DNA of 57,961 bases, counting the filler, from Basidiobolus ranarum (lineage: Eukaryota), in assembly GCA_040143965.1 (NCBI GenBank). It is 7 parts of 7 records of this genome, joined end to end, with 100 filler letters (N's around TTAATTAATTAA, not from the genome) between each part and the next. Parts side by side here need not be neighbours in the genome. Positions count along the whole stretch, not along the records: positions 16,633 to 24,834 come from JASJQH010007877.1; 6 more parts are not named here. The stretch is one strand, 5' to 3'. Positions 8,223 to 57,961 of the stretch are shown here, piece after piece (the first letter of the stretch is position 1; each line of letters begins with the position of its first letter). The notes under the pieces were generated by a model. That model worked only from the letters and a program-made list of their open reading frames with translations. It searched no databases and was not told the DNA's origin. The position numbers were made by a program, and so were the translations under genes.

Positions 8223-8322
8223 NNNNNNNNNNNNNNNNNNNNNNNNNNNNNNNNNNNNNNNNNNNNTTAATTAATTAANNNNNNNNNNNNNNNNNNNNNN
8301 NNNNNNNNNNNNNNNNNNNNNN
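8223..8322. other. Artificial contig spacer N44-TTAATTAATTAA-N44 (also at 16533-16632, 24835-24934, 33127-33226, 41410-41509, 49689-49788)
   Basis: An identical 100-nt spacer with stops in all six frames occurs six times; the flanking segments decrease monotonically in length. Confidence 0.98.
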
Positions 8323-16170: not shown

Positions 16171-16632
16171 GCTTCCACCTAGACGTTAGTAAATCAACGA
16201 GTATTCAGTTATTCAATATGGACGATCTCTTAGTATGCCCTCTTATAAACGACGACTCATACTGTGAAACTACCACTTGTATCAATTACCTGCACCTGCA
16301 TTATGTCACAAACGTTGAATCAAATTGGTTGTCACATTAATAGTTATTGGTGAATTTTAAAGCAAGCGAGTACAAGATTAATGATTTAAAACATGAGCAC
16401 TATTGGTTGGACCTGTAGAATGTGTGGCAATAACAATTGATGGTTTTTTTCATTCCATTTTGCGATGGCAACAGATAGCGAGATTTACGTAAACCAGATG
16501 AATGAGAGTTTAGTTTAATGTAAGCAATTGAANNNNNNNNNNNNNNNNNNNNNNNNNNNNNNNNNNNNNNNNNNNNTTAATTAATTAANNNNNNNNNNNN
16601 NNNNNNNNNNNNNNNNNNNNNNNNNNNNNNNN

Positions 16633-19157
16633 CTTTTCTTTAGAATCAAAGATGACTCTTATGGGTACTTGTCCTGCCTTAAATTGCTTGATATGTAGTC
16701 AATCCCTAACAAGAAAATGATGGGCTTTCCTCCTGAGGCTTCTGAATTGCTAGAGATCTAAGGAGTAGGGTGTCTGAAATGTAGTCAAATAATGGATAAT
16801 ATCTCTTGGTTCTTCATGTATAGGGGTACTGATAGAAACTTGGTGTATGTTGGCATCAAGGGAGTTTTCCAAGTTGTCTTCAGAGTGTACTTCACCAGGT
16901 CTTGGTCCCATACTTGATAGTCCCGCTGCAACAACATTTGTACTTCCTGGTATGGGTACCACTTAAAAGTCAAATGTCGTGAGCCAAGCCATCCACCAGT
17001 TGGTAGCATCATCTGGTAGATCTGGTTTGTTGATTATTGCAATAAGTGGTCTTGCATCTGTTTCAAGTATGAATTGAGTCAAATAGAGATGGGCCTTTAA
17101 TTTCTGATCATCTTTACAGCTCCAAGTAGCTCTCTCTTGATCTGGGAATATCTTTGATCCCTAGGGTTGTATAAGAAGCTTTCATATCTGCAGGCATATT
17201 GGTTGCCTGCTTCAGCATTCTGGCCTAAAAGAGCACCCACTCCAATAGGACTTGAGTCAACTGTGAGTATTGGTGGTCTTGTGGCATCTGCATAGTCTAG
17301 TGACTCAAGTATTGCATGTGATGTTAGTGCTTGCTTCAGCTTCTCCATAACAGCATTTTGATCAAGTCCCCATTCAAACTTCATATTCTTTCTCTGTAGT
17401 TGATATTTGTGTTCTGCAATTCCAGCAAAATTGGGAATCCATATTCTAAAAAATCTACAAGCAGCCACAACTCCTCTTGCTTGGGGTAAGTTGCTTGGTG
17501 TTTGCCATGTGAGAAGATTCTAAATCTTAGATGGTCCTGGTGTACTTCCATGAATGTCACATTTTGTGCCAATTATGGATATCTCTGGCATTCCAAATTC
17601 ACTTTTCTCACTACTTAGAGTGAGTCCAGCTTTCTCAATTTTGGTCAAAATCTCATCATTGTCTTGTATATGGGCATATACAAATCTTCTTACTCCTGGG
17701 AGTACTTCAGATGTGTCATTGATAGGCAATCCTTTTATGCCAATGTCATCTACAAATACAGCTTACTTGTCAGGGATGAACTTGTGGAGGACATTGACAA
17801 TCACACATTGAAACTGTGCAACAGAGTTAGTTCCCCTTGGGCTGAGTCTTGTCATTCTAAGTAGCCCAAATGGAGTCTGTTATCTAAACATGTCTCATGA
17901 TGTTTCATCAATTGGTATTTAGTCATATGCTGAGTATAGATTGTAGGTTGAACATATGGAAGCTTCTGCAAAGCTCTTGGCAAGTTCATCAATTGATCTG
18001 GGTACTGCAGCATCTCTGATTGAAACCACATAGACTGGCTGCATGTCTTGTATGAATCACAGTTTGCCTTTGTTCTTCTTTGTGACAAACCAGTGGTTGG
18101 CATAAGGTCCATAGCATGGTTCTAGGATTCCAGCTTTAATCTTTCTCTTAAGAAGTGCATGTACATCTGGTTATAGGCCTCTTGGTAGTTGGTAAGGTTT
18201 ATAAGACCATGGTGTGTGCTCTACAGTGTGAATATTCATAGGTTTCTCAACTGAGAGCAATAGTAGTACCATTTGCTGGTCATTGTACGCAAAGACTTTG
18301 TCATGTCTAACAATCATATCCCTAGAGAGTTTAACTTCCTGAGGGCTGAGGCTGCCATTGCCATTCTGGAATGCTTGATAGAGTCACACCATACACAATT
18401 GGCTGGGTAGGAAGATGGATAGGTTCCTCCTTGGTAGGACTTACTCTCAATCTTAAAAGTGAGACATTCAAGTTTCTGGCTAATGTTAAATAGTTCTTCC
18501 TCAACTTTGACTGTTCTACTTTTTGTCAAAGGTTCTTCTGGTCTTGGTTGTGGTTGTTCCCTGCTCTTCTGGAACATTTTCATGAGAGCTGAGTTCTCCT
18601 GACTGGCTAGGAGGACTTTCTTCACATTAGCAAGTGAGGGAATATCAGAGGTTGATTAGCCAGTAGTTCCTTGATCTATTGTTGTCAGTAGGTGTTGGGG
18701 CAAGGCAATCAATAGGTAAATATTAATGGTACTTCAGTGATAGCACCTTGTTAAATCAAAGGTGCTCCAATATTTTCATCTTCTTGGATAAATTGTTTGA
18801 TAGGCATCTTTAAGAAGCTGGTTTTGGCAAAGTCCTTCAAGTAATAGATTGAGTAGGTATGGCAGGGTTCTCAATAATTTGCTACCAAGAGTCCTTTCTT
18901 AATGCTCCAGTCTTGTAGTGTGGAAGGGTTGTCTTCAAGTGTTCTTCACAGTATGGTGGTAGTTCTTCAGCCATTTTGTCTTGAGGAACAGTGTAAGCTT
19001 GGCAGAAAAGTTCCCATCTGCTGATGATTGCTTAAACCTTGGTTCCATCAAACAAGGGAGTTCCTGGGAATCCACATATTGGTAGTATTTGGTTGACATA
19101 GTGAATGAGTAGTAGTAGTCTTTCTTGTTGTAAATCTTCACAGAGATTCAGTCAAAT
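16633..19157 (-). mobile_element. Decayed Ty3/Gypsy LTR retrotransposon internal region (gag, RT, RNase H), with many stops and frameshifts
   Basis: Gag zinc knuckle CVWCDSIKH; RT motifs GPYANHWF, QTPFGLLRMTRL and AVFVDDIGIKG; RNase H sequence ILTVDSSPIGVGALLGQ..RYSQIKRELLG. Confidence 0.92.
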
Positions 19158-19175
19158 CCCCTATGTTGGGTGCCA
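19158..19175 (-). promoter_or_regulatory. Primer binding site for tRNA-Lys, decayed
   Basis: Minus strand TGGCACCCAACATAGGGG lies 2 nt after the LTR-terminal CA. The canonical tRNA-Lys(CUU) PBS is TGGCGCCCAACGTGGGG; both CpGs are changed to CpA. Confidence 0.8.
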
Positions 19176-19177
19176 AA

Positions 19178-19910
19178 TGTAGCTGTTTTAGGGTGTAAGC
19201 AGCAAATATAACTGCAATATCCTAAGGGTTTTGTGAGGTGTTCAAAGGGTGCAATAACCACCGTTGAATATCTCTGGGATACACTGTAATATGGGTCTAT
19301 CTCTTGCCTCTTGGGTTTTTGTGAAAGGGAATCAAGGCTCTACAAATGTCTAAGGACTGATAAACTATGATGCAATGTGTAGCTTTCTGTTGAATTATAT
19401 GCTGGCACCTGACAAAAGAATATACCAGCTTCAACATCCTTTGAGAATGCTCAGATAAAAAAGGAATATCTAACCAAAAAATGGTATACTCAGCCAGCAG
19501 GGACTTGGACAAGGATGCACTAGTAGTGATTTGTCCAAGGATCTGAAAGGTTCCTTACCAATACAGACAAAGCTAGGGAAAAAAGTATAAAGTATCAGAC
19601 ATATAACACCTGCCTGTCAATACTTCCTTTGCGCCTGTCAAGTCCTTTCTAGTCACACAGTAGCCTGTAACTGCCTCTAGTAGTGTTCTGGATGATTGTA
19701 TAATTTTCCAGAAAATAATAGGGCTAATGTGAGTTAATACTGATAGATCTGAAATAATAGGGGATAATACTAATGGTGTAATATGATTGGCTAGAAAATA
19801 TGACTAAGTCAAATATGAATAATCAAATAGAAATTGTGCAATAGTAATGATATGAGCTTGGAGTGGAAATAAGTCAACCTGCCAGTGGGTAGCAATGCCA
19901 CCCCACTACA
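19178..19910 (-). repeat. 5' LTR of the Gypsy element (733 bp)
   Basis: Minus strand starts TGTAG (19910) and ends CTACA (19178), a 5-bp terminal inverted repeat; the PBS and gag follow directly. Confidence 0.78.
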
Positions 19911-19959
19911 CCGATGAAAGCCAAACAATCATTTGGACATGAAGGTAGTTTAATTACTG

Positions 19960-22520
19960 AAGGACTATAAGTCATACAGTTGACAAGTATTTTCCACTTG
20001 TACCAGATCTACACATGACCATGACAATCTAGTTGAGCAGAATATATGTTGGACTGTTATGCCTACACAACAACCCAAAATGCTTGGGCAATTGAAAGAA
20101 GAAATCTCATAGGAAAACCAGCAAACCAAAAGATTCTGAATGTCAGAGCTGTCATCACTTGCACTGATGATGAGTGGTTTAACATTTTGGAAATTGTGCC
20201 AAATCTTGCCTGAAATCACCTGGATTTGAGCCAATTGCGGAAAAACCACAAGCTAGGCATTACTCTGAAGATTCTTGACTTCTTTCATGTGGCTTATCCT
20301 GGGTTTTTGCAAGCAAATCACAATTGGGCTAGTACAGGCTGATTCATGAAATACCTCAAATATGTATGCAATTATTTACTTTCAATAGAAAGCAAAGCAG
20401 CTAAAGAAGTACTTGAAGAGCAGGAAGTTAGTAAACCAAGGTAAAAGCAAAGCAGCCAGTGAGCTTGGGCTTTAATGTCCCACTTACCAAATACTTCACA
20501 CCATTAAAAAAATCTGCCTTACCAGAGTCAGAGATACTTGCAAGAAAGCTTTATTCCACCATGGAACTTGGTACATCAGTTGAAAGAGTGCTAAATTTAG
20601 AAGTTCATCCAGCACCTGGCACCTCTCAACCAGCCAAAGTACCTGCAAATAAAACTCAAGGCACTCCATCCTCAATTGGTACTTTTCAAAGTGCTGAAAT
20701 TAGCCCCAAAGTTAAAGGCAAGCAAAAAGCCAACACTTGACAACAATAAAAAGACATACAAATGCTGCAAAGCACCTTCAGTGGTGTCACACTGCAAGTT
20801 TCTATAAAAATAGGCAAACTGCTTAAGGATTACTTTGAAAAGCATGAAGCAAAAAACTCAGGGACTACAAGTATGTAAAAAATAGTATAAGTGCTTGAAG
20901 AGTATGACAAAAGAATGAACAGAAAAATATAGTGCAAGTATGCAGAAAGAAACTTTCAAAGAATAACATTCAACTTGCATTCAGCATGATGTTGACCATG
21001 CAGATTTCTGGGAAAAACATGTCACAGTGTGGCACAATATTGCCACATAATCACCAGATAGATGCAAGAATGTGGCTTCAGCAGCATTAATAAAATGGTA
21101 AGCTTTGTTGAGATATTGATACACACTTGTGTGGGCTATGAGGAAAACCTTGGGTGGACAGAACTCTGTGAAAAAATCCATAAGAATGTATCAAAGAAAC
21201 TAGGGATTTCAAAGGTGAACAATTAGCTTTCAAGTGGTAATTGTGTAAATTTGAGTTACTTTTTTCACACATGTGTTCATCCATGGTTTTCTGAGATTGA
21301 AGCCAATCATGTGCACCTGTTTTGTGACATCTTGAAATTTCACTCCTGAAACTGAAAAAATCATTTAAAATCAAATCTAACTTGACAATTCTAAGATGGT
21401 AAGTAAAAATCAATCCAGAATGGATTGAAATGGTGATATTATTCTTGCTATAACAATTTTCAAATTTCAGTTGGGGTGGTGTATTGATGTAATTTGCAGT
21501 GGCACTTATATCATGATAACAAAAGTTTTCCTCTTTTGAACACCATGAATCAGACATAATTGGCATTATGGTTTTATATTTTGCTTTTGGAACCACCCAA
21601 TGTTACTCTGTGCTTGGATCTAACAAACATGCACAATAATAAACCCTTTCTCCTCATGGCCATATGTGTGTACCCTGTTGCAAAATTGTCAAAAATATAT
21701 CCATCAGAGGCTGTAGTATTTTGTGGACTATCAGTGGATTTGATTTTAATATTGGTCAAATCACTGTAATATCTTGACCCTTGTAGAGCTCAATTGGTGC
21801 AAAATCAATAGTGAGTAAGATTACTGGTCAACAGGTATTGTATTACATGTTTATTCAGTGGAATACCATGATGTGCCAAGTTAAATACATGATCAAGACA
21901 TCTTTTGAAAATGACCTTACTAGGGAGCTCCTTGCAGTTGAACTGATGAAATATATCAAGATGACATCAGTATTTTGTTATTAATCTGTACAAAATATCA
22001 TTGACTTGCATTTGGGTGTTCTTCATATAGTTGTGTTTGCACTTTTGCTATATATGATGAATATGAGTAACACTTATTAGAAGATTTAATGCCAGTGAGA
22101 TTGCAGCTGTTGCACTCAATCATATACATGATATTACTGGTGAAAGCTATACAGCTAGTTGAACATGGTGTTATAAACATGATGACTGAATCATATGCAG
22201 AGTACAACACTGTAGCTTTGCACTTAGGCAATATTCCCCTTTCAATGAGCAAAATATTGCTGGAGCAGTCTCACTACCTTCAGTAGTAGCAGGACTGCCA
22301 AGAATGAGTCAAGCTTGTTACTGCTTGTACCAACTGTACCCATATAGATGTTATCCTAACTCTCCACTGTCTCATTCTCCAACAATAGCAAATTAAGTTC
22401 TGACTCCATACCAACTTGCAGAAGAATATTACCACTATAAGATAGCATGAAGAAGCCCAACCTATGTTACAGTTTCTAAATATGGCTGAAGTTTGAAGGA
22501 AAAAAGTCAAGGAATCATAT
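19960..22520 (+). pseudogene. Decayed gene(s) of an unidentified multicopy element, copy 1 (shared block about 20930-21472)
   Basis: Stop-riddled but protein-like frames (e.g. PWFSEIEANHVHLFCDILKFHS*N*KNHLKSNLT*QF*DG, then a GTAAGT..CAG intron-like segment); homologous to 22661-23212 (-) and 24935-25135 (+). Confidence 0.55.
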
Positions 22521-22660
22521 TAGGTACTTTGAAGATCATCATAATAACAGTTCAACATTTGAATAAAGACTTAGAGCCAGTAATATATTGACATTTCAGT
22601 TGAATGCTAAATTAAGTAAGCTCTAAATAAATTTTTGTAGCCCAATTCTGACAGTATCTT

Positions 22661-23212
22661 ACTCTAACAGAAATTTGAGGATTGCTGTTGTAAGAAAACC
22701 ATCAAAATTTTAATCCATGTGGGATTGACTGTTTACTCACCATCATGAAATTGTCAAGTTTGATTTGACTTTAATCAATATTTCCAGCTTCAGGAATAAC
22801 ATTTCAAGATCTCACAAAATAGTTGGCATGATTTGCTACAATGTCAGAGAACTATTCATTAACACATGTGCAAGAAACATAACTGGAAATTTACCCAATT
22901 ACCACTTGAATGCTAATTTGTTTCCTTTGAAATCTCAAGTGTCTTTGATATATTCTACTTAATATTTTTATAGAGTTCTTCATACATAAGGTTTTGCTCA
23001 TATCAAACATGAGTTTGTAACAATGTCTCCATTAGAGCCCACATTGTATTAATGTTGCTGAATCAACATCCTTCCAGCCATCTGGCAGATACCCTGTAAT
23101 ATTGAGCCACCATGTATTAAGTTCTTCACAGATATGAGCACAGTCAACACTAGACTGAATGTGAAGATGAATGTTTTTCTTTTGAAGCCACTTTCTGCAT
23201 ACTTGCACTGCA
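22661..23212 (-). repeat. Inverted second copy of the unidentified multicopy element
   Basis: The reverse complement aligns by eye with 20930-21472 and 24935-25135 (AGTGCAAGTATGCAGAAAG; ATCTTGAAAT..AACTTGACAATT..GATGGT.AGTAAA..CCTCAAATTTCTGTTAGAG). Confidence 0.8.
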
Positions 23213-23491
23213 ATGGGTTAAAGAGACTCCGGAGTATATTAACCTTCCAACTAAGGGCTCTTTTCAAAGTGCTCATAAGTTTTTGCATTGTTTGAACACA
23301 ATAACAGCAACAAAGCCCAATCCATGGATACAGAGTGAGTACCTCTATAATTTAGACTAATTTTTTTGTGTGATAATCTGACAGTATTTTTGGGAAAGCT
23401 GCAAAACAGACTTCTTGGTGAGATAAATCAATATACATGGTATTATTGTTTTAGCCATAGGGTAGTCTATTCAAGCAATGGCATATCTACT

Positions 23492-24054
23492 TGTGGCAGG
23501 ACATTTGTTTACTGCAAGTTGAGTGTCCCAATAAGGAACTGGACAAGGGCTGGAAACAACAACAAGATGCTAGAAGGCAGGAGAGTACTTGGGTGTAGAC
23601 TACAAGGCAAGACAAGACTGTACAAGGAAGATACTTTGGCAACAATCTTTATTGAGAACTGGCATTGATCAGACTGAGGTCTGATCAAGGAAAACATGGG
23701 GCTTATATAGATATTGCAAGGTGAAACATAATATACTGAATAGGAAATATGCTGTGGCAAGTTCAAGAGTCAGGGTGATGGGGACTACAAGGACCAATAC
23801 AAAGAGGGATGATTTAAGGATGATCAGGCAACCTTCCATGGAAGGTCTTGGCAGAAAAACACTATGTGAGGGATGACATGGTTGGTTAGGTTTCATGGAA
23901 TGTTCCAAATAACTTGACTTCCATAAAAGGTAACTTGGATGGACTAACACACAATTGCCAAGAAGGGATGGCACAGCAGATATGCTGTCATAATCTAATA
24001 ATTGCAAGAGTTCTATTTGCAATGGATCAGTATGCCAAGATCAGAATCATGCCA
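23492..24054 (-). repeat. Probable 3' LTR of the chromovirus element (distal boundary uncertain)
   Basis: The polypurine tract AAAGAAGGGGATAC is followed by TG at 24054 on the minus strand; a candidate CA end lies near 23492. Confidence 0.5.
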
Positions 24055-24834
24055 GTATCCCCTTCTTTAGTGATGGTTTCCAGACATCATAGGGCCAGGT
24101 TTTTCTGTATAAGCTTCATGAAACTCCTGGCAAAGTTCCTTGGAATTGGAAAGATTTGTTGCTGGCTCCCATAATTGATCATTTATTTAGTATCCCTTCC
24201 AGTCCACTAAATATTGCAATTTACATTGATAAATTCTGGAATCTAGAATTTTGCTGACTTCATATTCAAGGTGTTCTTCCACTTGTATTGCTGGGGGTGG
24301 GTCAATGGATTAGCCCTGTAAGGTGTTTCTGGCATGTGGCTCTAAGAGAGAAACATGGAACATCTAGACTTGGCTTTCTTTTCTTATCAGTACAGTTCTT
24401 GTATTGGGATTGGGCATGCTCTGACTCAAATATTAATTGTTTATGGATGTCCTTAACAAAAGTGGCATGGTCTGAGGCAGCAAGGCAAGGTAGATTGAAT
24501 GGTGGGTGAATTGTGAAACAAAGATGGAATCCATGATTTGCGAAGAAGGGAGTTTATTTTGTTGAGGTATGATAAGAGTTGTTGTAAGTAAATTCAGCAA
24601 GTGGCAAGAGTTGTGTCCATTTATCCTGATCATGGTTGATAGTGCATTGCAAATATTGTTCCAAAACTTGATTGACTCTTTCTGTTTGGCCATCAGATTG
24701 GGGGTGGAAGGCAGTGATGTTTTGGGTTACCAATTCTCCGGAGGCCACAGGGCTGATGTCTTTGAGTCTTCACTTGAGCACAAGTATCACAGGTGGAAAC
24801 ATAAGTCTTGACAAATGCAAACATTTTGGGCCAC
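24055..24834 (-). mobile_element. Decayed Ty3/Gypsy chromovirus 3' end: integrase core, chromodomain and PPT
   Basis: Integrase [39 protein letters not shown]; chromodomain EYEVSKILDSR..LQYLVDWKGY..WEPATNL..EFH. Confidence 0.9.
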
Positions 24835-24934: not shown

Positions 24935-25135
24935 TAATCCATAGTTCTCTGAGATTGTAGCCAATCATGTGCAAGTATTTTGCAAGATCTTGAAATTTCA
25001 CTCCTGAAACTGAAAAAATTGATTAAAATCAAATCTAACTTGACAATTTTATGATGGTAAGTAAATGGGCAATCCCAAATGGATTAAAATTGTGATGGTT
25101 TTCCTACAATAACAATCCTCAAATTTCTGTTAGAG
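24935..25135 (+). repeat. Third copy (fragment) of the unidentified multicopy element
   Basis: High visual identity to 21280-21472 and to the reverse complement of 22661-22870. Confidence 0.8.
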
Positions 25136-25146
25136 TTGCTTACCCC

Positions 25147-25255
25147 TTGACAAAACTATAAATATCAACTTTCTATTCAATAAATTGATAAGTGAAACCA
25201 CCAATTCCTCTAACTTGCCAAAACCACTTCCAACAGGCTCCCAAATACTTTAACA
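25147..25255 (+). repeat. 3' half of an LTR family B copy, abutting the Copia RNase H remnant (another partial copy at about 25820-25916)
   Basis: Ends CCACTTCCAACAGGCTCCCAAATACTTTAACA, like the LTR B copies at 43901-44219, 45039-45204 and 57337-57679. Confidence 0.75.
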
Positions 25256-25502
25256 AATATTAGCTGTATTCAGATCATGAAAAATTCAGATCTTCACTCA
25301 AGGATGAAGCATATTGACATAAGATGTCAATTTTTCAAGAGAAAATTCAAGACAAAGAAGTGAACTTTATTTATTATAATACTGAAAACATGCTTGCAGA
25401 TATACTAATAAAACCACTCAAAACTTCAAGCTTTGAAAAGTTGAGAGCAGGCATAGGTGTTAGTGAATACAAGCACAATGCTGAATAAGAATTAAGGAAA
25501 GG
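25256..25502 (+). mobile_element. Ty1/Copia RNase H C-terminal remnant plus polypurine tract
   Basis: NISCIQIMKNSDLHSRMKHIDIR..(frameshift)..EKIQDKEVNFIYYNTENMLADILIKPL..FEKLRAGIG; stop at 25488; AAGGAAAGG precedes the TG. Confidence 0.88.
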
Positions 25503-25790
25503 TGTTGAATAATTGATCTTCATTCAACATCTTAGTTAACTTTAGTTATGATACATACATCTGAAACAGAAAACAATGTATCTATAGCCCCCATATTCTA
25601 ATTAGGAATATCTCTATATGTATAGAATTAGTATTTCTTATTTCTCCATTTATCTATTATATCTTATTTCACAAACTCATGAATATCTCCATCAATTGAT
25701 TTACTTCTCTACTATATAAGTCACCGTATTCTCTTAAGAATAAAGTAACTACAAACATTATTATAAGTTGCCTCTAATATATAAAGTCTA
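25503..25790 (+). repeat. Copia 3' LTR, family A (3' boundary approximate)
   Basis: Starts TGTTGAAT right after the PPT; colinear with 57715-57961; contains TATATAA and AATAAA. Confidence 0.8.
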
Positions 25791-26233
25791 CCCCCCCCAT
25801 GTCAAGATCCTCCATCACTTCTTGATAAAAGTATAAATGTCAACTTACACTCAATAAATCATTGAGTGAAAATCACCAATTCTTTTAGTTTTCCAGATCA
25901 CTTTCAACAACTGTCAAATTCCTTCAATAAGAGGTGGTCAACAACAATCTTTTAGAGAAGTCATTGAGAATCAACATATCTCCAGTTGCTATGATGATTG
26001 GTTTATGTGGAATTCTTGGTTAAGGGATAAAATATTTTGGTTTGTAAGTAATTGTCCCAGTTATGTAATAATCTCTCTATCGCAAAATAACCAATCTTCA
26101 CTAGCCAAGATTTGCCCTAAAGATTTGAATAAAATATAGATATCAGCATAAATATTGATTAGTTTGAATTTATTTTCTATCAAATAACACTGCTCTTTGC
26201 TTGGATTTCTGTGTAAATGAGCGCAAATGTTGA

Positions 26234-27453
26234 TTAGTTAGTTTTTGGATTTGTAATATAAGAAATGAACATTGGGACTCCAGTCTTGGTTCGAATAACA
26301 AACAGAAATGGACGATCACATCGCATTTCAGGTGTAGGCTCTCTCATCATCGGAGCAGACCTGAGCATAATAATCGCTGTAGCAGCACTGGCTTTAGAGC
26401 CTATTAAATAATGCTTAATTAATCAATGAATCTTGAAGATGACTTTGATTTGTTCCTACCTTTCTCATCGACTTCTATGCGACATTTGTGCAATACATCA
26501 CTAACGTAAAAAGGAAACTTGGACAGATTAGTGAGTTCCGCATCACTTCCGAATATCTGCTCAACTCCTGCACTCTTCAGCACTTGATTTAACTTCAACC
26601 CTTGCTCCAGATCGAACTTGGGTAAGCTTAGATTTACCTGGCGTCTGTATCTATTTCCGCTGAAGATGGATGTCCAGTGCTCTTCGCTTAAGTTGTTCGA
26701 GAAATCAGCAAAGGATTGCACTTTTCGTGGCAATACCACGGTAGCCACAAATCGGTCATCTGTGTACGGCATATCTAGGATTTGGTAGTCCTGAGTCTCA
26801 TCATAGCTCCACTTTGCCTTGAAAGAATTCATCATTTGCGTCTTGATCGGCTCTCCTTCCAACACCCGGAACTCTTCTTCTTTAGTTAGATCAGCCTTGA
26901 ACGCATTTTTCCATTTACCGTGGAAGAACACCGTGTTCACTAGCAATAGACTTTGTGGATCCAAAGAAAACCCCGGCGGAAGGATTGCTGTGATATGATT
27001 CTTGGTGTTTCGTGAGACCCAGCTGTTTACCTTTTCAGATGTCGGTAGTTGTGGAAATACTGAAGCAAAAAATCGATTTTTAGCTAGATCAATATAACTT
27101 TGTTTGAATGACTTTCCCCACAATGAGTTTGCCAGTAAGAAGGTTGCATTAGGACTATCTAGTGCTTTGTCGCTCTCATGGTCACCCATCAGTGGTTGAA
27201 AGAAATCATGGAAAGTACTGGCGAGCTGAGGTAGTGTATTTCCATGGGAGCTTGATGTTCCAAAGAACTGCAGGAGCTCTGACCGACTTTGACTCTTCTC
27301 TGCTGTTCCATAGAGCAACATAAAAAGAGCGGCAAATATAGACAATGGTGAGAACAGAATGTTGGTTGTGGGACTAACACTCTCTTGGAGAGAGGAGGCC
27401 AAATTCATCCCCACCGAAGACACCAGTGCACTTACCGTCGCGTTAAACACCAT
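26234..27453 (-). CDS. Serpin (serine protease inhibitor), probably intracellular and inhibitory; intron 26401-26459
   Basis: NILFSPLSI, VNSWVSRNTKNHI, LVNTVFFHGKWKNAF and LSLPKF motifs; hinge/RCL DEKGSKASAATAIIMLRSAP; C-terminal signature CDRPFLFVIR. Confidence 0.92.
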
Positions 27454-27503
27454 GATCGCTAGCAGAGGTAAGGACGGGCGGAGAAGTTAAGTACTTATGG
27501 CAT

Positions 27504-29160: not shown

Positions 29161-29690
29161 TTATGGATGTTTTATCTAGATGTACCATACCTCTCCTATA
29201 GCCTCTCGAATAAAATTTCAACTCTTTCATTATCTGCAATGTATTATTAATAATCGACAATCCACCATCGATCCTTCGTTATCTATTTGTTGTCAATCTA
29301 AGGTTGTAGTTGTCCCACAACCAACCAAAGACCCGCAGGATGTAAGATGTAGGTCGAATCAATCTTAGTTCTCTTCTCCCCGACTTCCATTGGAAATCCG
29401 TAGTATAGTCCGAAAATTTCCGCTTCTCCATTCACATAGAATTCTAGTATCATGTGCCTCATGATTGCTCATAGTAACTCATTTTTACTCCTTGATTTAG
29501 AAGTGGATTTGGTTGAACATTTCCTAATAGGGTTTACTCCAGTCATAAGTCTGAACAGTTGAATATATATTTTCAATCGGATTCTCTTGGATTCTCTTCA
29601 TTACATCTACCGGGGATTTTTTTTGAAATATTACGACTTAGCTTCCCTCTCTATCCCCTTTTTCTACATACAACCTAAGTAACATATAGA

Positions 29691-32234
29691 ATGTTGATAC
29701 CCAAGTACACTCCCGCTGACCTAACCTCCGAAACCTTCTCCTGCTATTCAGTGTTTCCTGAGAAGTACCTAACTGACATCAAATCCGTTGACACACCATT
29801 ACCTAAAGGCTCTAACTGGGTCGAAATCAACATCTTAGACGACGTAGTAGAGGCAACTCTAAAACTACTTGACGCCGGTGTTTCCAAAGTATTATTTAAC
29901 GAAGGGAAACTTGTACCTGAACTTTTGGAGTTTCCTCAAGATAGACTTGGTGTTATAATATCTGTTCAAAATGCTACCGATTTAGCCGAGAGAGTGGCCA
30001 AATACTCCAGTCAAGTATCAGTTGTAGTATTAAAACTTGAAGCTAACTTTGAAGAAATATTCACTGCTCTGGAGTCAATATCCTCCAAAACTACTTTACA
30101 ACAGAATGGCGGCGCTGTACGTTTAGTAGTCGACGGTATTGATCTCGACTTGGCTACAATTGAAAGATTGAGTGCCAAAGATATTGACGTAAGCCTTCCT
30201 GTTAAATCTTTATCCGTTGATTCGGATGGAGTCGGTAAAGCCCTAGGCGCCAGTTTGGTATCCGATAGGCCCGATGGTTTATTTACTACCATCGTAGTGG
30301 ATGAACAAGGTGTATGTCTGGGACTAGTTTACTCCTCTGTTGAGAGTTTGAATGAATCCATTAAAACCGGTACCGGTGTTTATCAATCCAGAAAACGTGG
30401 ACTTTGGTATAAAGGAGCCACTTCTGGGGCTACACAAGAGTTACTTAAGATTGATACGGATTGTGATAGGGATGCTTTGAGATTCACCGTACGCCAAAAC
30501 GGATCCGGTTTCTGCCATTTAAATACTCGTACTTGCTTTGGAGTAGATGAGGGAATCACTTCATTGTATTCCACCTTGACTCAACGCAAAGAATCTACAC
30601 CACCTAAAGGTTCTTACACCGCTCGTCTCTTTAACGAACCTAATCTTTTACATTCTAAAATCATCGAAGAGGCTCATGAATTATGTGATGCAGTGGATAA
30701 AGAAGAAATCGCTTGGGAAGCTGCGGATTTAATCTACTTCGCATTGACTAAATGCGTCGCTAACGGTGTTACCTTGTCGGATGTGGAAAGACACCTGAAC
30801 AAAAGATCTAAGAAAATCACTAGAAGACCCGGAAATGCTAAACCTCAATATGAAGTCGTGGATAAAGCTCCAGTGGCTACACCTAGTCCTGTTGTTGATA
30901 CCCCTAAATCCGTTGATAGAATCGAAATGAAGGTACATTCTAATGCGGAAATTGATGCTTCGAAGCGTAGCTCATTACTACTCAGACCCATCATTAAATC
31001 CGAAGAAATCATCTCTCGTGTTCAACCCATCTTAAAAGAGATCCGTGCTAATGGTGACCAAGCCATTATTGATCTCACTGAGAAGTTTGATGGAGTCAAG
31101 CTAAAGACCCCTGTGATCAAAGCACCCTTCCCCAAGGAGATGATGCAAATCGACGAAAGAACCAAAGCGGCTATCGATCAAGCGTACGATAATATTTACA
31201 AATTCCATGATGCCCAATACGACCGTAACACACTGGTGGTGGAGACCATGCCCGGTGTGATCTGCTCAAGGTTCAGTAGACCCATTGAACGTGTTGGTCT
31301 GTATGTTCCCGGTGGTACCGCCATCTTACCTTCTACTACGTTAATGCTTGGTATTCCCGCCAAGGTTGCTGGTTGTAAAGAGATCATTGTTGCTAGTCCT
31401 CCTCGTAAAGATGGCTCTGTTGTGCCTGAGGTATTGTATGTTGCTGATAAAATTGGAGCATCGATGGTTGTCTGTGCTGGTGGTGCTCAAGCAGTTGGTG
31501 CTATGGCATATGGTACAGAATCGGTTCCCAAGGTTGACAAGATCTGCGGACCTGGTAATCAGTATGTAACAGCGGCTAAGATGATCGTTCAAAATGACAG
31601 TTCAGCCATGACCTCGATTGATATGCCAGCTGGTCCATCGGAACTCTTGGTGATCGCAGATTCAACATGTACACCTAGTTATGTCGCATCGGATTTGTTA
31701 TCTCAAGCTGAACATGGTATCGATAGTCAGGTTGTATTAGTCGCTGTGGATCTCTCTGAAGAGAAATTCAAGGCCATCGAAGATGAGGTTCACAACCAAG
31801 CGAGCAGATTGCCTCGTGTGGAGATTGTACGTCAATCAATCCCCAAGAGCTTCGCTCTAAAGGTCACCTCAATGGAAGAAGCCATGAGCTTCTCTAATGA
31901 CTATGCACCAGAACATCTCATCCTCCATCTTGATGAAGCTGAGAAATATGTCGATCAAGTGGAGAATGCTGGCTCAGTGTTTGTTGGCCCTTGGTCACCA
32001 GAAAGTTGCGGTGATTACGCCTCTGGAACTAATCACACTCTCCCTACATATGGATACTCCAGAATGTACTCTGGCGTCAACACAGACACTTTCTTGAAGT
32101 ATATTACCAGTCAACAGTTGACCAGTGATGGACTCGATCGCCTCGCTGACTCTGTGATGAGATTGGCCGAAATTGAAGGCTTAGAAGCTCATAGAAATGC
32201 CGTTGCTGTTCGAGTACAAGATATTAGGAAGTAA
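29691..32234 (+). CDS. HIS4: Trifunctional histidine biosynthesis protein (PRA-CH / PRA-PH / histidinol dehydrogenase), intronless
   Basis: LWYKGATSG..DTDCDRDAL..FCH (cyclohydrolase), SYTARLF..KIIEEAHEL..WEAADL (pyrophosphatase), GLYVPGG..DMPAGPSE..APEHL..GDYASGTNHTLPT (HisD). Confidence 0.97.
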   Translation: MLIPKYTPADLTSETFSCYSVFPEKYLTDIKSVDTPLPKGSNWVEINILDDVVEATLKLLDAGVSKVLFNEGKLVPELLEFPQDRLGVIISVQNATDLAERVAKYSSQVSVVVLKLEANFEEIFTALESISSKTTLQQNGGAVRLVVDGIDLDLATIERLSAKDIDVSLPVKSLSVDSDGVGKALGASLVSDRPDGLFTTIVVDEQGVCLGLVYSSVESLNESIKTGTGVYQSRKRGLWYKGATSGATQELLKIDTDCDRDALRFTVRQNGSGFCHLNTRTCFGVDEGITSLYSTLTQRKESTPPKGSYTARLFNEPNLLHSKIIEEAHELCDAVDKEEIAWEAADLIYFALTKCVANGVTLSDVERHLNKRSKKITRRPGNAKPQYEVVDKAPVATPSPVVDTPKSVDRIEMKVHSNAEIDASKRSSLLLRPIIKSEEIISRVQPILKEIRANGDQAIIDLTEKFDGVKLKTPVIKAPFPKEMMQIDERTKAAIDQAYDNIYKFHDAQYDRNTLVVETMPGVICSRFSRPIERVGLYVPGGTAILPSTTLMLGIPAKVAGCKEIIVASPPRKDGSVVPEVLYVADKIGASMVVCAGGAQAVGAMAYGTESVPKVDKICGPGNQYVTAAKMIVQNDSSAMTSIDMPAGPSELLVIADSTCTPSYVASDLLSQAEHGIDSQVVLVAVDLSEEKFKAIEDEVHNQASRLPRVEIVRQSIPKSFALKVTSMEEAMSFSNDYAPEHLILHLDEAEKYVDQVENAGSVFVGPWSPESCGDYASGTNHTLPTYGYSRMYSGVNTDTFLKYITSQQLTSDGLDRLADSVMRLAEIEGLEAHRNAVAVRVQDIRK

Positions 32235-43751: not shown

Positions 43752-43900
43752 GTGCTAATTTGTCAGATGTATAAAGCCGTAACCTTTTCATTGGTTGGGC
43801 AATCTTAAGATTCCAATAAACCTGCTGCCATTGGTTAATTTTTTCAAAAATTGCTAGTAATGATAATTTACTCAGGTGGCAACCGATATATCTTTGTTCT

Positions 43901-44219
43901 TGTTAAAGTATTTTGGGAGCCTGTTGGAAGCGGTTTTTCGAATTAGAGAAGTTAGTGGTTTTTACTTTTTGAGTATTCAGTTGAAAGTTGGCATTTACAG
44001 TTTTGTCAAGATGTAAACAAACTAACGTGTAGAATGTGTTAAGGAAGGTCCCAGGCACATGTGTACAAAGTTTGGGGCTTCTTTGAAAAATCTATATGTC
44101 TGAGAATTTCTAAGTATATTCCAATTGAGAATAATGGGTAATATCTTGGTTCAATATAAGATAACTAAATACTAAACTATATATGACTATATAGGTGTTT
44201 AGGCATGCTAATTTCAACA
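43901..44219 (-). repeat. LTR family B copy (solo-like, no TSD seen)
   Basis: Minus strand TGTTGAAATTAGCATGCCTAAAC...GGCTCCCAAAATACTTTAACA; colinear with 44719-45038 and 57337-57679. Confidence 0.85.
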
Positions 44220-44675
44220 ACCTGTATTCCGCAGTGATATCAAATCTACCTTGGGCTTACTCATTTCCAAACAATAACATTGCCTTGAACCACTTTTGGC
44301 CTTCTATAATACATCAGATGATTTTTCACAATGCTTGAGCATGGACCTTTTTAACACAATGAGCTATGAGGACAGTTCCTCCTATACATTGATAAGGCTT
44401 TTATTTGCTCATAAAGCATATTTACTTGAGGGCTCTCACTGTATGCAAAGTACATTAATGCTTAGGAGCGTGTAAGTTGGGACATGTAAGAACTGGTACA
44501 GTATTATCAAACCTAAGAAAAAAAGTGAGATTTTGAATGTATACCTGTGGAGACTGTTGTGTGCCAACATTTCCACATACACAGGTGTGACTGCAAAGAG
44601 CAGTGAGTTTGTTATACAACATGTTAAAGCTCATTAATATATCCTACCATTAAGCAACACGTATGTTAGTACATT

Positions 44676-45204
44676 CTTTAGAAGTTAACATTATCAAAGC
44701 ACCTACATAGTCATATATTGTGAAAGTAATTGAGAGCCGGTTGGAAGTGGTTTGGAGATATTGAGAAGTAGGTGGCTTTCACTAATTGATTTATTGAGTT
44801 GAAAGTTGGCATTTATAGTTTTGTCCAGATGTAAACAGACCAACATGTATAATGCGTTAAGGAAGGTCCCAGGCACATGTGTGAAAAGTTTGGGGCTTCT
44901 TTGAAAAATCTACATATCTGAGAACTTCTAGATAAATTCCAATTGAGAATAAGGGGTAATATCTTAGTTCAATATAAGATACCTAAATACTAAGCTATAT
45001 ATGACTATATAGATGTTTGGGCAATGCTAATTTTAACATATATAGCTTAGTATTTTGCTAGCACCTTCCTTACTATATTATACACATTTATTTGTTTATC
45101 TCTTGGTAAAACTACAAATGTCAACTTTCAACTCAATAAGCGAGAACCACCCATATCTCTAGTTCTCCAAACCACTTGCAACAGGCTCCCAAAATATTTT
45201 AACA
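44676..45204 (+). repeat. Older, internally deleted LTR B copy interrupted by the solo LTR at 44719-45038
   Basis: Removing the insert restores CACCTACATAGTCATATATAGCTTAGTATT, the LTR B 5' part; the copy ends CAACAGGCTCCCAAAATATTTTAACA. Confidence 0.75.
44719..45038 (-). repeat. Solo LTR, family B, with a 5-bp TATAT target-site duplication
   Basis: TG..CA termini; TATAT at 44714-44718 and at 45039-45043. Confidence 0.85.
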
Positions 45205-45840
45205 TATTCATCTGCAATAGTTGCCATATGGATAGGTTACAATGTTTCCTAACCCCTTCTACTACTTGACCGTAATTTTGCTTCTCCTATTTCAGTGAAA
45301 TGTATGCTGAGTTAATATCCAAGTCATAGTAGTTGTTAGCTCTACCCTGTAGTACTCTGTTGTTTGTTGAGTTTAACTGGATTTCTTGAGAGTAAATGCT
45401 CTACTTTGTTGATTTTTTGAGACTTTGATGGAGAATAATGTACATGCACTGAGGTTTTCCATACTATACTGTTGGGGTAATTATGTGGACACTTATAATC
45501 CCCTTATGGCTGCCACAATACAAGGATATTTTTTTAGTCCCCAAACTACACTTATTTTAACCATGATCATCACCATTGCCATTGATATCTTTTGAAGAGT
45601 TGCCACTGTGCTGTCTTCACTCATTTGAGCATCATAAGCATCCTCTCTATTTTGTGATGACTACCAGTGCCACTATTTAAGTTGCTTGTGCGTCAGTTTC
45701 ATTTCATCATGTGAATAGTCTTGCCGCTGAAGGGACTTATGCATTAGGTTTGTGATGGATCGCTTATTTTAAACTCCAGATGTTTCCAGTTTTGTAGCTC
45801 AAAGACGACCAGATAAGGGAGAGCAAAACGGCCTTACAGA

Positions 45841-46260
45841 TCACTGTGAGTAATGGTCGAGACAAATTAACATATCGGTACTTAGTACCTGAACCATTGC
45901 ATGGGTAACTTTGATCATTTCTACAGTTTTCATTTTGTTTGCTTTGTAGCTGGTTCTGGAAGCAGAAGAATGATTTTCAGTTGAAAATGAAGTAATACTG
46001 GAATTAAGAGTCTCCATGAAAGCAGCAACCATATCGTCAGCTATTTCTGATTGTGGTGAGGCATACATGTTAATCTGCACTTGAATAACTGTGACAGCTT
46101 GCATCCAAGCATCAAATAAGTTTATTGAACTGTCACTCCTCAACGTATTGCAACTACTGGGGATAACCCCTGTATCAAGATCAAAGAAATTTATCCAGTT
46201 TGAGAAAATGATGTGGATATTGAATATCACTTCACGAAGATCACTCCAGCTCTCAAACAA
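45841..46260 (-). pseudogene. Possible decayed coding remnant, unidentified
   Basis: 139-codon ORF without an ATG start, in CpG-poor DNA beside the LTR cluster. Confidence 0.25.
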
Positions 46261-46400
46261 GGCTCATTATATAAGTAAGAACATCCTGTTGTGAAAAGTT
46301 TGTTGAAGTAATTAAGTTAGAAAAAAGGAAATTTTTAGAGTGTTGAAGTTATGCTAGAGGCCATTAAAATCCTAAGTCAGTTCACCTATTTTTATAGATT

Positions 46401-46450
46401 TACCAAAATATAATGTCTGAGCTTATACCAAAATATAATGTCTGAGCTTA
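46401..46450. repeat. 25-bp perfect tandem duplication
   Basis: TACCAAAATATAATGTCTGAGCTTA x2. Confidence 0.9.
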
Positions 46451-47028
46451 TATATAGTTTCGAATGCTCATATGTACCTGAATCAACTATACACAAAATA
46501 CATATCCAGTACCAACACTGTTACCAATTGTAGCCTCATGCAGTTTCTGTTAGTTGAAATTCATTACTCTCGTACATCTCATTGCATATGCCCACTTCAT
46601 TCAATCTTTGATTTGTGCCACAAAATTGATTTAAACCTACAAAAAGAGAAATATACTGATTCACCTTCACACACGGCTACACCAAGCTTTTAGCTAGCAA
46701 ATCTAAATATGCTAGTAATGTCTTGTATTCAACTATTAAATAGAATTTACCAACTATTAATCTTACACTATAACTGTCACTCAACAAATCAGCAAAGAGG
46801 TACCGATTTTGGGCTCGGTTTTACTACATGAAGAGTTTACGCAATAATAATCATAGGCACTGTCCATTGCATATGTGGTATTTATTTATGACGACTCTAT
46901 CCATACAAAGAGATAAAGGCTTGATTAAATGGGAATTATTAATCAGAACGCAAAAGAAATAACCGACAGAAGAATATTGAGCAAGGAATAATGAAATTTG
47001 TCAAAAGTATCAAATTAGACTACGGTCT

Positions 47029-56702: not shown

Positions 56703-57336
56703 TACACTTCATCTCTCACCATTTCTTTCACCGATCACTTTTGCATAGGATTTGTAATAAATAACCCCATAATTGATTTCATTTTGTTGCTGGCAATACT
56801 TGTTTGTTCTTCCAAGAACTGATGCCTTGAACCATCAGATATGCCTCTATACTGTGGGTGGTACAACAAAATGCACTAGCCACATTAGGACCTGTGATTT
56901 ATTAGGGGGCTTGGATATTGTTGAATCTTGTCAGTGGTATCAAAATTGATCATTAACTTGTTGACCAGAATCCTGTTCCGTTTTAGCGAGCCTGATACTC
57001 CATGATATGGGACAGAGTAGTCCAGAACATATGCTGCTCAATTTGGCACTCGGGCCTGATCAACTTCAATCTGCATCCTGTTGAATCACATACAACTTAT
57101 TGACTCTTTTTAGGTACACTAAAATAATATCTTTACTTTATTTTTAATGTTTCTTTTAATCTTTTTTGACTCAAATATACAAAGTTGCCTATTAAAACAT
57201 CATTAAAAAACATAATAGTTTAGCTATGTTTTAATAAAAAAGTTTGTGATTTAATATCAATTATTTTTGTTGCCTACTTATAGTCTATATTTTGAATGTT
57301 TGTCTTACAGTCTTGACCTCATGATAAACATGGGCA

Positions 57337-57679
57337 TGTTGAAATTAGCATTGCCTAAACACCAATATAGTCATACATATAGCTTAGTACTTAGTTATCC
57401 TAAATTTCACAAAGATATCACCCATTATTTGATATCAGAATGTTCTTAGAATATTTTTACCAACTTGGAAGTTCAGAGATATATAGACTTATCAAACTTC
57501 TGCTAGAAGCCCCAAAATTTGCACAAATACTTCTGGGACTTTGTTTATCACATTCTATATAGTACTTTGCTTACAGCTTTACAAAACTATAAATGTCAAT
57601 TGAATGCTCAATAAGTGCAAACCACCAATTTCTCTATGTCTCCTGACCACTTCCAACAGGCTCACAAAAAACTTTGACA
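57337..57679 (+). mobile_element. 5' LTR of a Copia-type element, family B (343 bp)
   Basis: TGTTGAAATTAGC...ACTTTGACA, immediately followed by the PBS. Confidence 0.85.
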
Positions 57680-57691
57680 GGTTATGAGCCC
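57680..57691 (+). promoter_or_regulatory. Half-tRNA primer binding site (anticodon stem-loop of initiator tRNA-Met)
   Basis: GGTTATGAGCCC is the reverse complement of GGGCUCAUAACC in tRNA-iMet, as in Ty5/copia-type elements. Confidence 0.85.
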
Positions 57692-57714
57692 CAAGCTTGT
57701 ACTCTCTGTCATGT

Positions 57715-57961
57715 TGTTGGATAATTAATCTTTATTCAACATCATAGTTAACTTTAGTTATGATACATATATCAGAAACAGAAAGCAATGTACCTATAGC
57801 CCCTATATTCTAAATAGGAATATCTCTATATTTATATAACAAGTACATCTTATTACCCCCACTTATCGATTATATCTTATTACACAAACTCCTGAATATC
57901 TCAAACAATTGATTTGCTTTTCTACTATATAAGTCACCATATACTCTTAAGAATAAAGTAA
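57715..57961 (+). repeat. LTR family A copy inserted just downstream of the family B PBS; runs off the window
   Basis: TGTTGGATAATTAATCTTTATTCAACATC..., colinear with 25503-25748. Confidence 0.85.

Follow-up and report, generated by a model that had tools for sequence, protein, structure and literature searches.

The 57,961-nt stretch of DNA analyzed here (the window) is made up of seven pieces of about 8.2 kb with linkers of the form N44-TTAATTAATTAA-N44 between them (the spacers at 8223-8322 and 16533-16632 plus four more); it is not a single locus, and distances or adjacency across a spacer have no meaning. Our subject is the loss of the dinucleotide CG (CpG) from the third piece, positions 16633-24834 (8202 nt, GC 38.1%), and from three shorter repeat tracts elsewhere in the window. 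From its homologies, the DNA affected by this loss is assigned to decayed Ty3/gypsy chromovirus fragments and to repeats resembling long terminal repeats (LTRs). All the recognizable coding remnants of the third piece are on the minus strand, where matches to RVT_1, RT_RNaseH_2, Integrase_H2C2, and Chromo follow the chromovirus order, split over two truncated elements that we call A and B. A Pfam search of the plus strand of 16633-24834 gave no match, and neither did tblastn with gypsy polyproteins elsewhere in the window. We found no LTR pair flanking one element within 16633-24834, and both elements are cut by the ends of the piece. The features that concern us, with the ratio of observed to expected CG (o/e) where it applies, are the following:

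16633-24834: decayed retrotransposon and repeat piece with near-total CpG loss (10 CG, o/e 0.034)
16633-18383, minus strand: element B, a decayed Ty3/gypsy pol that runs off the piece at 16633 (Pfam RVT_1, RT_RNaseH_2, and RT_RNaseH; tblastn with gypsy polyproteins)
about 17565-18014, minus strand: reverse transcriptase (RT) of element B (Pfam RVT_1)
about 17090-17372, minus strand: RNase H of element B (Pfam RT_RNaseH_2 and RT_RNaseH)
24115-24834, minus strand: element A fragment, the 3′ portion of a chromovirus truncated where the piece ends (Pfam Integrase_H2C2 and Chromo; tblastn)
24506-24721, minus strand: integrase core homology of element A (tblastn)
24115-24264, minus strand: chromodomain of element A (Pfam Chromo)
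20931-21472 and 22666-23209: inverted pair of repeats of about 540 nt, 75% identical, also related to 24935-25136
24935-26200: CpG-poor repeat tract beside a CpG-normal serpin gene (2 CG vs. 28 expected, o/e 0.07)
43900-46800: LTR-like repeat cluster, partly depleted (23 CG vs. 89 expected, o/e 0.26)
56990-57961: CpG-poor repeat tract containing copies of repeats also present in 25136-25748 and 43900-45039 (2 CG vs. 22 expected, o/e 0.09)

Element A also retains the end of the integrase zinc-binding domain (Integrase_H2C2). In element B, pol is frameshifted near 17100 and its columns that could be aligned to relatives hold 11 stops, which marks B as an old element, and the copies of the LTR-like repeats are 70-88% identical to one another.

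The original prediction for this DNA had put the number of CG dinucleotides in the third piece at about ten, where a few hundred would be expected. The count is exactly 10, at the same ten positions (16924, 16978, 18288, 19262, 19632, 19912, 20238, 23230, 24541, and 24739), and the expectation from base composition is 296. Given the background o/e of 0.74 in the remaining stretch, which corresponds to a mean of 219 CG, a count of 10 or fewer has a Poisson probability of 6e-79. The longest CG-free run extends over 2992 nt, from 20238 to 23230, and the RT region of element B has 2 CG vs. 65 expected. The six other pieces have o/e values of 0.675, 0.789, 0.707, 0.755, 0.568, and 0.739; their genes had been described as CG-rich, which is too strong a term for values of 0.57-0.79 that are normal to mildly depleted. 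It had also been proposed that the other LTR clusters were similarly depleted, and this holds for 24935-26200 (0.07) and 56990-57961 (0.09), whereas 43900-46800 is clearly less affected (0.26). Together, the four repeat tracts (13341 nt) contain 37 CG, an o/e of about 0.07-0.085, compared with 0.74 for the rest of the window.

The depletion follows the repeats closely, as had been predicted. An all-against-all blastn of the window returned 15 repeat pairs, and all 15 lie inside the CG-poor tracts. The edges of the depletion are sharp and lie no more than about 40-200 nt away from the repeat boundaries: CG density recovers from 26222, shortly before the 3′ terminus of the serpin open reading frame (ORF); it is high as far as 43939, the first repeat there having its start at 43900, and high again from 46804; and the last drop follows 56732-57051. 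Unique DNA is spared, both in ORFs (o/e 0.756) and outside them (0.725), and since these two values are so similar, non-coding status does not explain the depletion, which is a property of the repeats and not of non-coding DNA in general. Similar CpG o/e values in genes and transposable elements had been named as the finding that would speak against a repeat-confined process; we obtained 0.085 for the repeats vs. 0.756 for the ORFs. Because the depleted tracts are embedded in contigs bearing CpG-normal fungal genes, they are not contamination.

The loss of CG is mutational and CpG-specific. Compared with the remainder of the window, the repeat tracts are short of 275 CG and have a surplus of 166 TG and 196 CA, with o/e values of 1.36 vs. 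1.14 for TG and 1.38 vs. 1.10 for CA. TG and CA increase about equally, and therefore both strands were affected. Every NCG context is reduced in the tracts (ACG 0.04, CCG 0.14, GCG 0.09, and TCG 0.06, compared with 0.67-0.84 in the rest), while CAG and CTG are undepleted. No preference for TCG is visible, although any such preference would be erased so near saturation. Comparison of repeat copies leads to the same place: CG is the sole dinucleotide never common to copies, as it was kept in none of 24 occurrences (a small and partly redundant sample; 0 of 8 in the non-redundant subset), whereas other dinucleotides were kept in 67.8% (range 49-74%). In 12 of the 24 the partner of CG in the other copy is TG or CA, and one alignment column holds CG, CA, and TG in three different copies. 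The double difference TG/CA is also the commonest double transition between copies (13, vs. 2-7 for seven other classes).

One copy of 93 nt, at 25817-25909, stands apart. Against 44740-44832 it shows G/A 9 times and A/G once, and against 45101-45183 it shows C/T 7 times and T/C once; these one-sided transitions are mostly not at CpG. The copy could be a small patch of strand-coherent hypermutation, or the result of chance.

The proteins closest to element B in a search of 5.8 billion sequences are 40-47% identical, and none is from Basidiobolus; the ancestral states of the element were inferred from distant relatives only, namely 80 metagenome elements with 36-44% identity in RT-RNase H, most of them with an intact pol. 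The CpG o/e of pol in these relatives ranges from 0.22 to 1.33 with a median of 0.85, and none of the 80 lies below 0.2; judging from this sample, the related gypsy clade is not natively CpG-free. Three relatives with intact or nearly intact pol (L004, L006, and L042; 0-2 stops) have values of 0.22-0.24 and are probably active elements in other CG-methylating hosts. More than half of the 80 loci (L007-L033 and others) come from one metagenome series, ERZ10344xx, with a GC content of 37-59% and widely varying CpG o/e, which suggests that elements of this gypsy clade abound in several eukaryotic hosts in these samples. Together with the mass balance, the involvement of all NCG contexts and of both strands, and the absence of any shared CG among the 24 occurrences, the CpG content of the relatives supports the CpG-specific, repeat-targeted mutational process that the original prediction had proposed.

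The arginine codons of element B bear the same mark. At the conserved Arg columns of the relatives, 587 of 888 Arg codons are CGN, and CGN accounts for 126 of 195 Arg codons in the host ORFs. Element B still has Arg at 10 of 18 conserved columns, a total that is slightly inflated by two column pairs overlapping at the frameshift in the frame-aware tblastn, and each of these 10 codons is AGR (AGA or AGG). Of the eight columns that lost Arg, four now read TGA, TGA, CAA, and TGG, which CGA and CGG yield by transition. The claim of many in-frame TGA codons was overstated, as TGA makes up only 3 of the 11 aligned pol stops (at invariant Arg in 2 cases) and the others are 6 TAA and 2 TAG. Parsimony at conserved pol columns gave 40 multi-step changes, 34 transversions, and 4.5 CpG-type transitions; these changes mostly reflect lineage divergence and are uninformative. 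Since every retained Arg codon is AGR, the shift away from CGN would have occurred under selection on a working element. This points to an active lineage that was long under CpG-depleting pressure, with decay that continued after insertion.

Outside CpG, the pol of element B has decayed by roughly 0.12-0.18 substitutions per site, and the observed depletion requires CpG to have decayed about 10-27 times faster than other sites. Passive deamination of 5-methylcytosine (5mC) can supply such a rate, and CpG in mammals decays about 10-fold faster or more. The cluster at 43900-46800 is the least diverged, the youngest-looking, and the least depleted (0.26). Because a transition divergence of 1% without methylation would recreate about 14 CG in the third piece, which holds only 10 CG beside a pool of 1376 TG and CA, the process would seem to have operated until recently.

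A motif resembling a primer-binding site (PBS) is located upstream of pol in element B:

19159-19175, minus strand: PBS-like motif TGGCACCCAACATAGGG, preceded by ACA TT

The motif has A at both positions where the complement of tRNA-Lys(CUU), in the sequence that we take that tRNA to have, carries CpG, and none of 100 shuffles matched it with one mismatch or fewer. This much agrees with the original prediction, in which both CpGs of a tRNA-Lys PBS had become CpA. The case is weaker than was stated, as the tRNA sequence is an assumption of ours and the motif was found at two substitutions or fewer in none of the 80 related metagenome loci. The pol homology begins only about 775 nt away from the motif, and for this reason gag and protease seem to have been shortened by deletions. 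An ORF upstream of pol (18314-18655, minus strand) has the pattern C-x2-C-x4-H-x4-M, similar to a gag zinc knuckle whose last Cys has been lost.

Outside the repeats, the long ORFs code for ordinary fungal proteins: a PDR-type ABC transporter, a PB1-domain protein, a serpin, a trifunctional HIS4, a DUF3472 protein, a DJ-1/PfpI protein, and a subunit of the CCT chaperonin. HIS4 (29679-32234) is 83% identical to a protein of Basidiobolus meristosporus CBS 931.73, and its next best matches, from other early-diverging fungi, are 50-67% identical, which identifies the host, as far as protein similarity goes, as a Basidiobolus-like fungus and agrees with the early-diverging fungal host that had been predicted. 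A tRNA scan of the whole window found no genes. The serpin gene is worth a separate line:

26419-27486, minus strand: intact serpin ORF of 355 aa (Pfam Serpin, E 1e-68)

This ORF has a normal CG density although it directly adjoins a CpG-erased repeat tract. Serpins are uncommon in fungi.

The evidence we gathered is best read as the footprint of sustained CG methylation restricted to transposons and followed by deamination of 5mC, an explanation that we consider quite probable. The host would mark only its transposons with symmetric 5mC at CG, by means of a maintenance system of the DNMT1 class, and the 5mC would deaminate to T, so that a methylated CG becomes TG, or CA when the other strand is hit. 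If the mark had been kept up for long, both on dead copies and on the element lineage that was still active, CG in the repeats would settle near an equilibrium at about 3-9% of expectation, with no such loss in genes and in unique non-coding DNA. That 5mC is the cause, that an enzyme of this class is responsible, and that the system continues to operate are all points that we infer; the small residue of CG beside the large pool of TG and CA suggests that the methylation system is probably still active. Consistent with a pathway of this kind, B. meristosporus has CDCA7F, a partner in the HELLS-DNMT1 pathway, and does not figure in that source's list of exceptions that lack DNMT1 (PMC10538959). 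Our literature search found no published CpG depletion or 5mC mapping for Basidiobolus, with the supplementary tables of PMC10538959 and PMC11258239, which may hold DNMT or 5mC entries, lying outside that search. The mutational scar of transposon-targeted CG methylation would be a known process, here carried to unusual completeness in a lineage for which we found no prior description.

Several observations weigh against this explanation. According to a review of 2026 (PMC13297926) and to PMC11258239, early-diverging fungi, Zoopagomycota included, are generally poor in 5mC, and Basidiobolomycota are among the fungi richest in 6-methyladenine (6mA). A change from Arg to TGA can also be reached from AGA by a transversion. 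Between repeat copies we counted 296 transitions vs. 262 transversions, a ratio of only 1.1, and TG/CA discordances are few, as in a 546-nt pair with 5 discordant and 55 concordant positions. Since transitions barely exceed transversions, discordances are few, and the retained Arg codons are already AGR, most of the CpG loss predates the divergence of the present copies. The depth of the loss raises a further difficulty. With 10 CG beside 1376 TG and CA, CpG must be lost, per position, about 69 times as fast as the reverse transition occurs, or faster. Methylated DNA of vertebrates, mammals included, has an o/e of about 0.2, and the floor reached here is several-fold below the mammalian value; passive deamination alone may be insufficient to reach it. 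Such a low floor would leave room for weak T:G repair or for deamination assisted by an enzyme.

The depth of the loss also bears on the idea that CpG is destroyed actively, by a hypermutation resembling repeat-induced point mutation (RIP), whereby a methyltransferase or deaminase senses duplicated DNA, perhaps at zygospore formation, and turns CG into TG in bursts. An o/e of 0.034 is deeper than in most methylated genomes, and the equilibrium bound implies a very high relative mutability of CpG; every repeat family seen is affected (15 of 15 pairs), none of the 24 CG survives in both copies, and the copy at 25817-25909 has its one-sided excess of G to A and C to T (9:1 and 7:1). RIP-like signals, as measured by the classical indices, and methylases with the RID architecture have moreover been proposed for Entomophthorales in a preprint (bioRxiv 10.1101/2023.09.13.557621). 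However, the elements are old, with 6 stops that are not of the CpG type and a frameshift in pol and with copies 70-88% identical, so slow decay at 10-27 times the background suffices. In the large pairs the four transition classes are balanced, with no strand-coherent polarity, and the transition/transversion ratio between copies is only 1.1. A functional ancestor that already used AGR for Arg needs long selection under mutation pressure rather than a burst, and the youngest-looking cluster is the least depleted, as a time-dependent decay predicts. We regard such bursts as unlikely, and a shade less likely still the stronger statement that Basidiobolus has an active, homology- or repeat-triggered CpG hypermutation that drives repeats to about 3% of the expected CG and would constitute a RIP-like defence outside Dikarya. 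Classical RIP of the Neurospora type, in which CpA is converted to TpA in a RID-dependent manner, shares with our data the theme of C to T transitions in repeats and finds nothing specific in its favor. TpA/ApT is 0.81 in the tracts (0.84 elsewhere in the window), short of the value of about 0.89 that usually marks RIP, and (CpA+TpG)/(ApC+GpT) is 1.48, which means that what should be the targets are overrepresented. Nor are the repeats enriched in AT (GC 36.2% in the repeat tracts vs. 36.9% in unique non-ORF DNA), and C/T, T/C, G/A, and A/G are balanced in the large pairs (22, 18, 11, and 11 in one example), the one-sided 93-nt copy aside. With both indices, base composition, and transition polarity against it, classical RIP has next to no probability and we exclude it for this window.

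The last alternative is that the repeats were CpG-poor from the outset, either by selection for CG avoidance to escape a silencing that reads CG or by descent from a CpG-poor donor genome, and that the host has no CpG-specific decay at all. It would account for the use of AGR at all 10 retained Arg codons, when CGN makes up 126 of 195 in the host ORFs and 587 of 888 in the relatives; the small number of TG/CA discordances implies families that were already CpG-poor when they multiplied, and three intact relatives stand at 0.22-0.24. Nevertheless, the depletion is just as strong in non-coding LTR-like repeats, which belong to several unrelated families, the deficit of CG is balanced by an excess of TG and CA, none of the 80 relatives falls below 0.2, and the depleted tracts lie inside contigs with CpG-normal fungal genes. 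The complete lack of CG conservation between copies (0 of 24) indicates an ongoing instability that is specific to CpG. An origin of this kind therefore strikes us as quite improbable. The original prediction had itself named native CpG poverty, with no excess of CpG to TpG changes between copies, as a finding that would count against it, and this is partly what we see, as the loss came largely before the copies arose; yet, combined with the fact that no CG is shared, it is also the pattern that long-term methylation predicts.

Long-lived methylation of transposons has several parallels, which place the explanation we favor among known systems. As in vertebrates, the chemistry would be that of 5mC to T, with an excess of TG and CA and a loss of CGN Arg codons; unlike in vertebrates, where depletion is genome-wide and levels off near an o/e of 0.2, here it is mosaic, limited to repeats, and about six times deeper. 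With RIP in Neurospora it shares a repeat-specific, irreversible C to T mutation as genome defence, but RIP targets CpA, enriches for AT, and raises TpA/ApT, whereas the target here is CpG and none of those traits is present. Among fungi, Horns et al. are said to have described the decay of CpG to TpG in transposable elements in 2012. A C to T bias at CpG confined to transposable element copies of basidiomycetes (Microbotryum, Melampsora, and Puccinia) and of Tuber is ascribed by Amselem et al. (2015; PMC4352252) to methylation of the Masc2/DNMT1 class followed by deamination, and our case resembles these. The Dikarya cases are weak to moderate, the signature being reported there in 10-40% of copies (PMC4352252); ours differs in its Basidiobolus-like, early-diverging host, in o/e values of 0.03-0.09 in three of the four tracts, and in the lack of any visible TCG preference. 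In early-diverging fungi, repeat-restricted 5mC at CG is described for Phycomyces blakesleeanus and Linderina pennispora, a member of Zoopagomycota (Lax et al., 2024; PMC11258239), and for Rhizophagus irregularis (PMC8298701). As these sources present them, all three are early-diverging fungi whose 5mC is mainly at CG and is confined almost wholly to repeats and LTR elements, with 6mA on genes. Those are direct methylomes, while the Basidiobolus-like case is known from its mutational footprint alone; the passages that describe the methylomes quote no values for CpG depletion and do not mention 5mC in Basidiobolus.

The finding of repeats that have lost 91-97% of their CG next to genes and unique non-coding DNA that are untouched argues for a strong and long-lived CG methylation specific to transposons in this lineage. 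If true, it would be the third early-diverging lineage in which 5mC and 6mA coexist, beside Linderina and Phycomyces. The depth of the erasure offers a natural case in which to ask whether the CpG floor is set by spontaneous deamination alone or requires weak T:G repair or deamination driven by an enzyme. In these fungi, CpG o/e may serve as a cheap marker, obtained from the sequence only, for the annotation of repeats and the prediction of methylomes.

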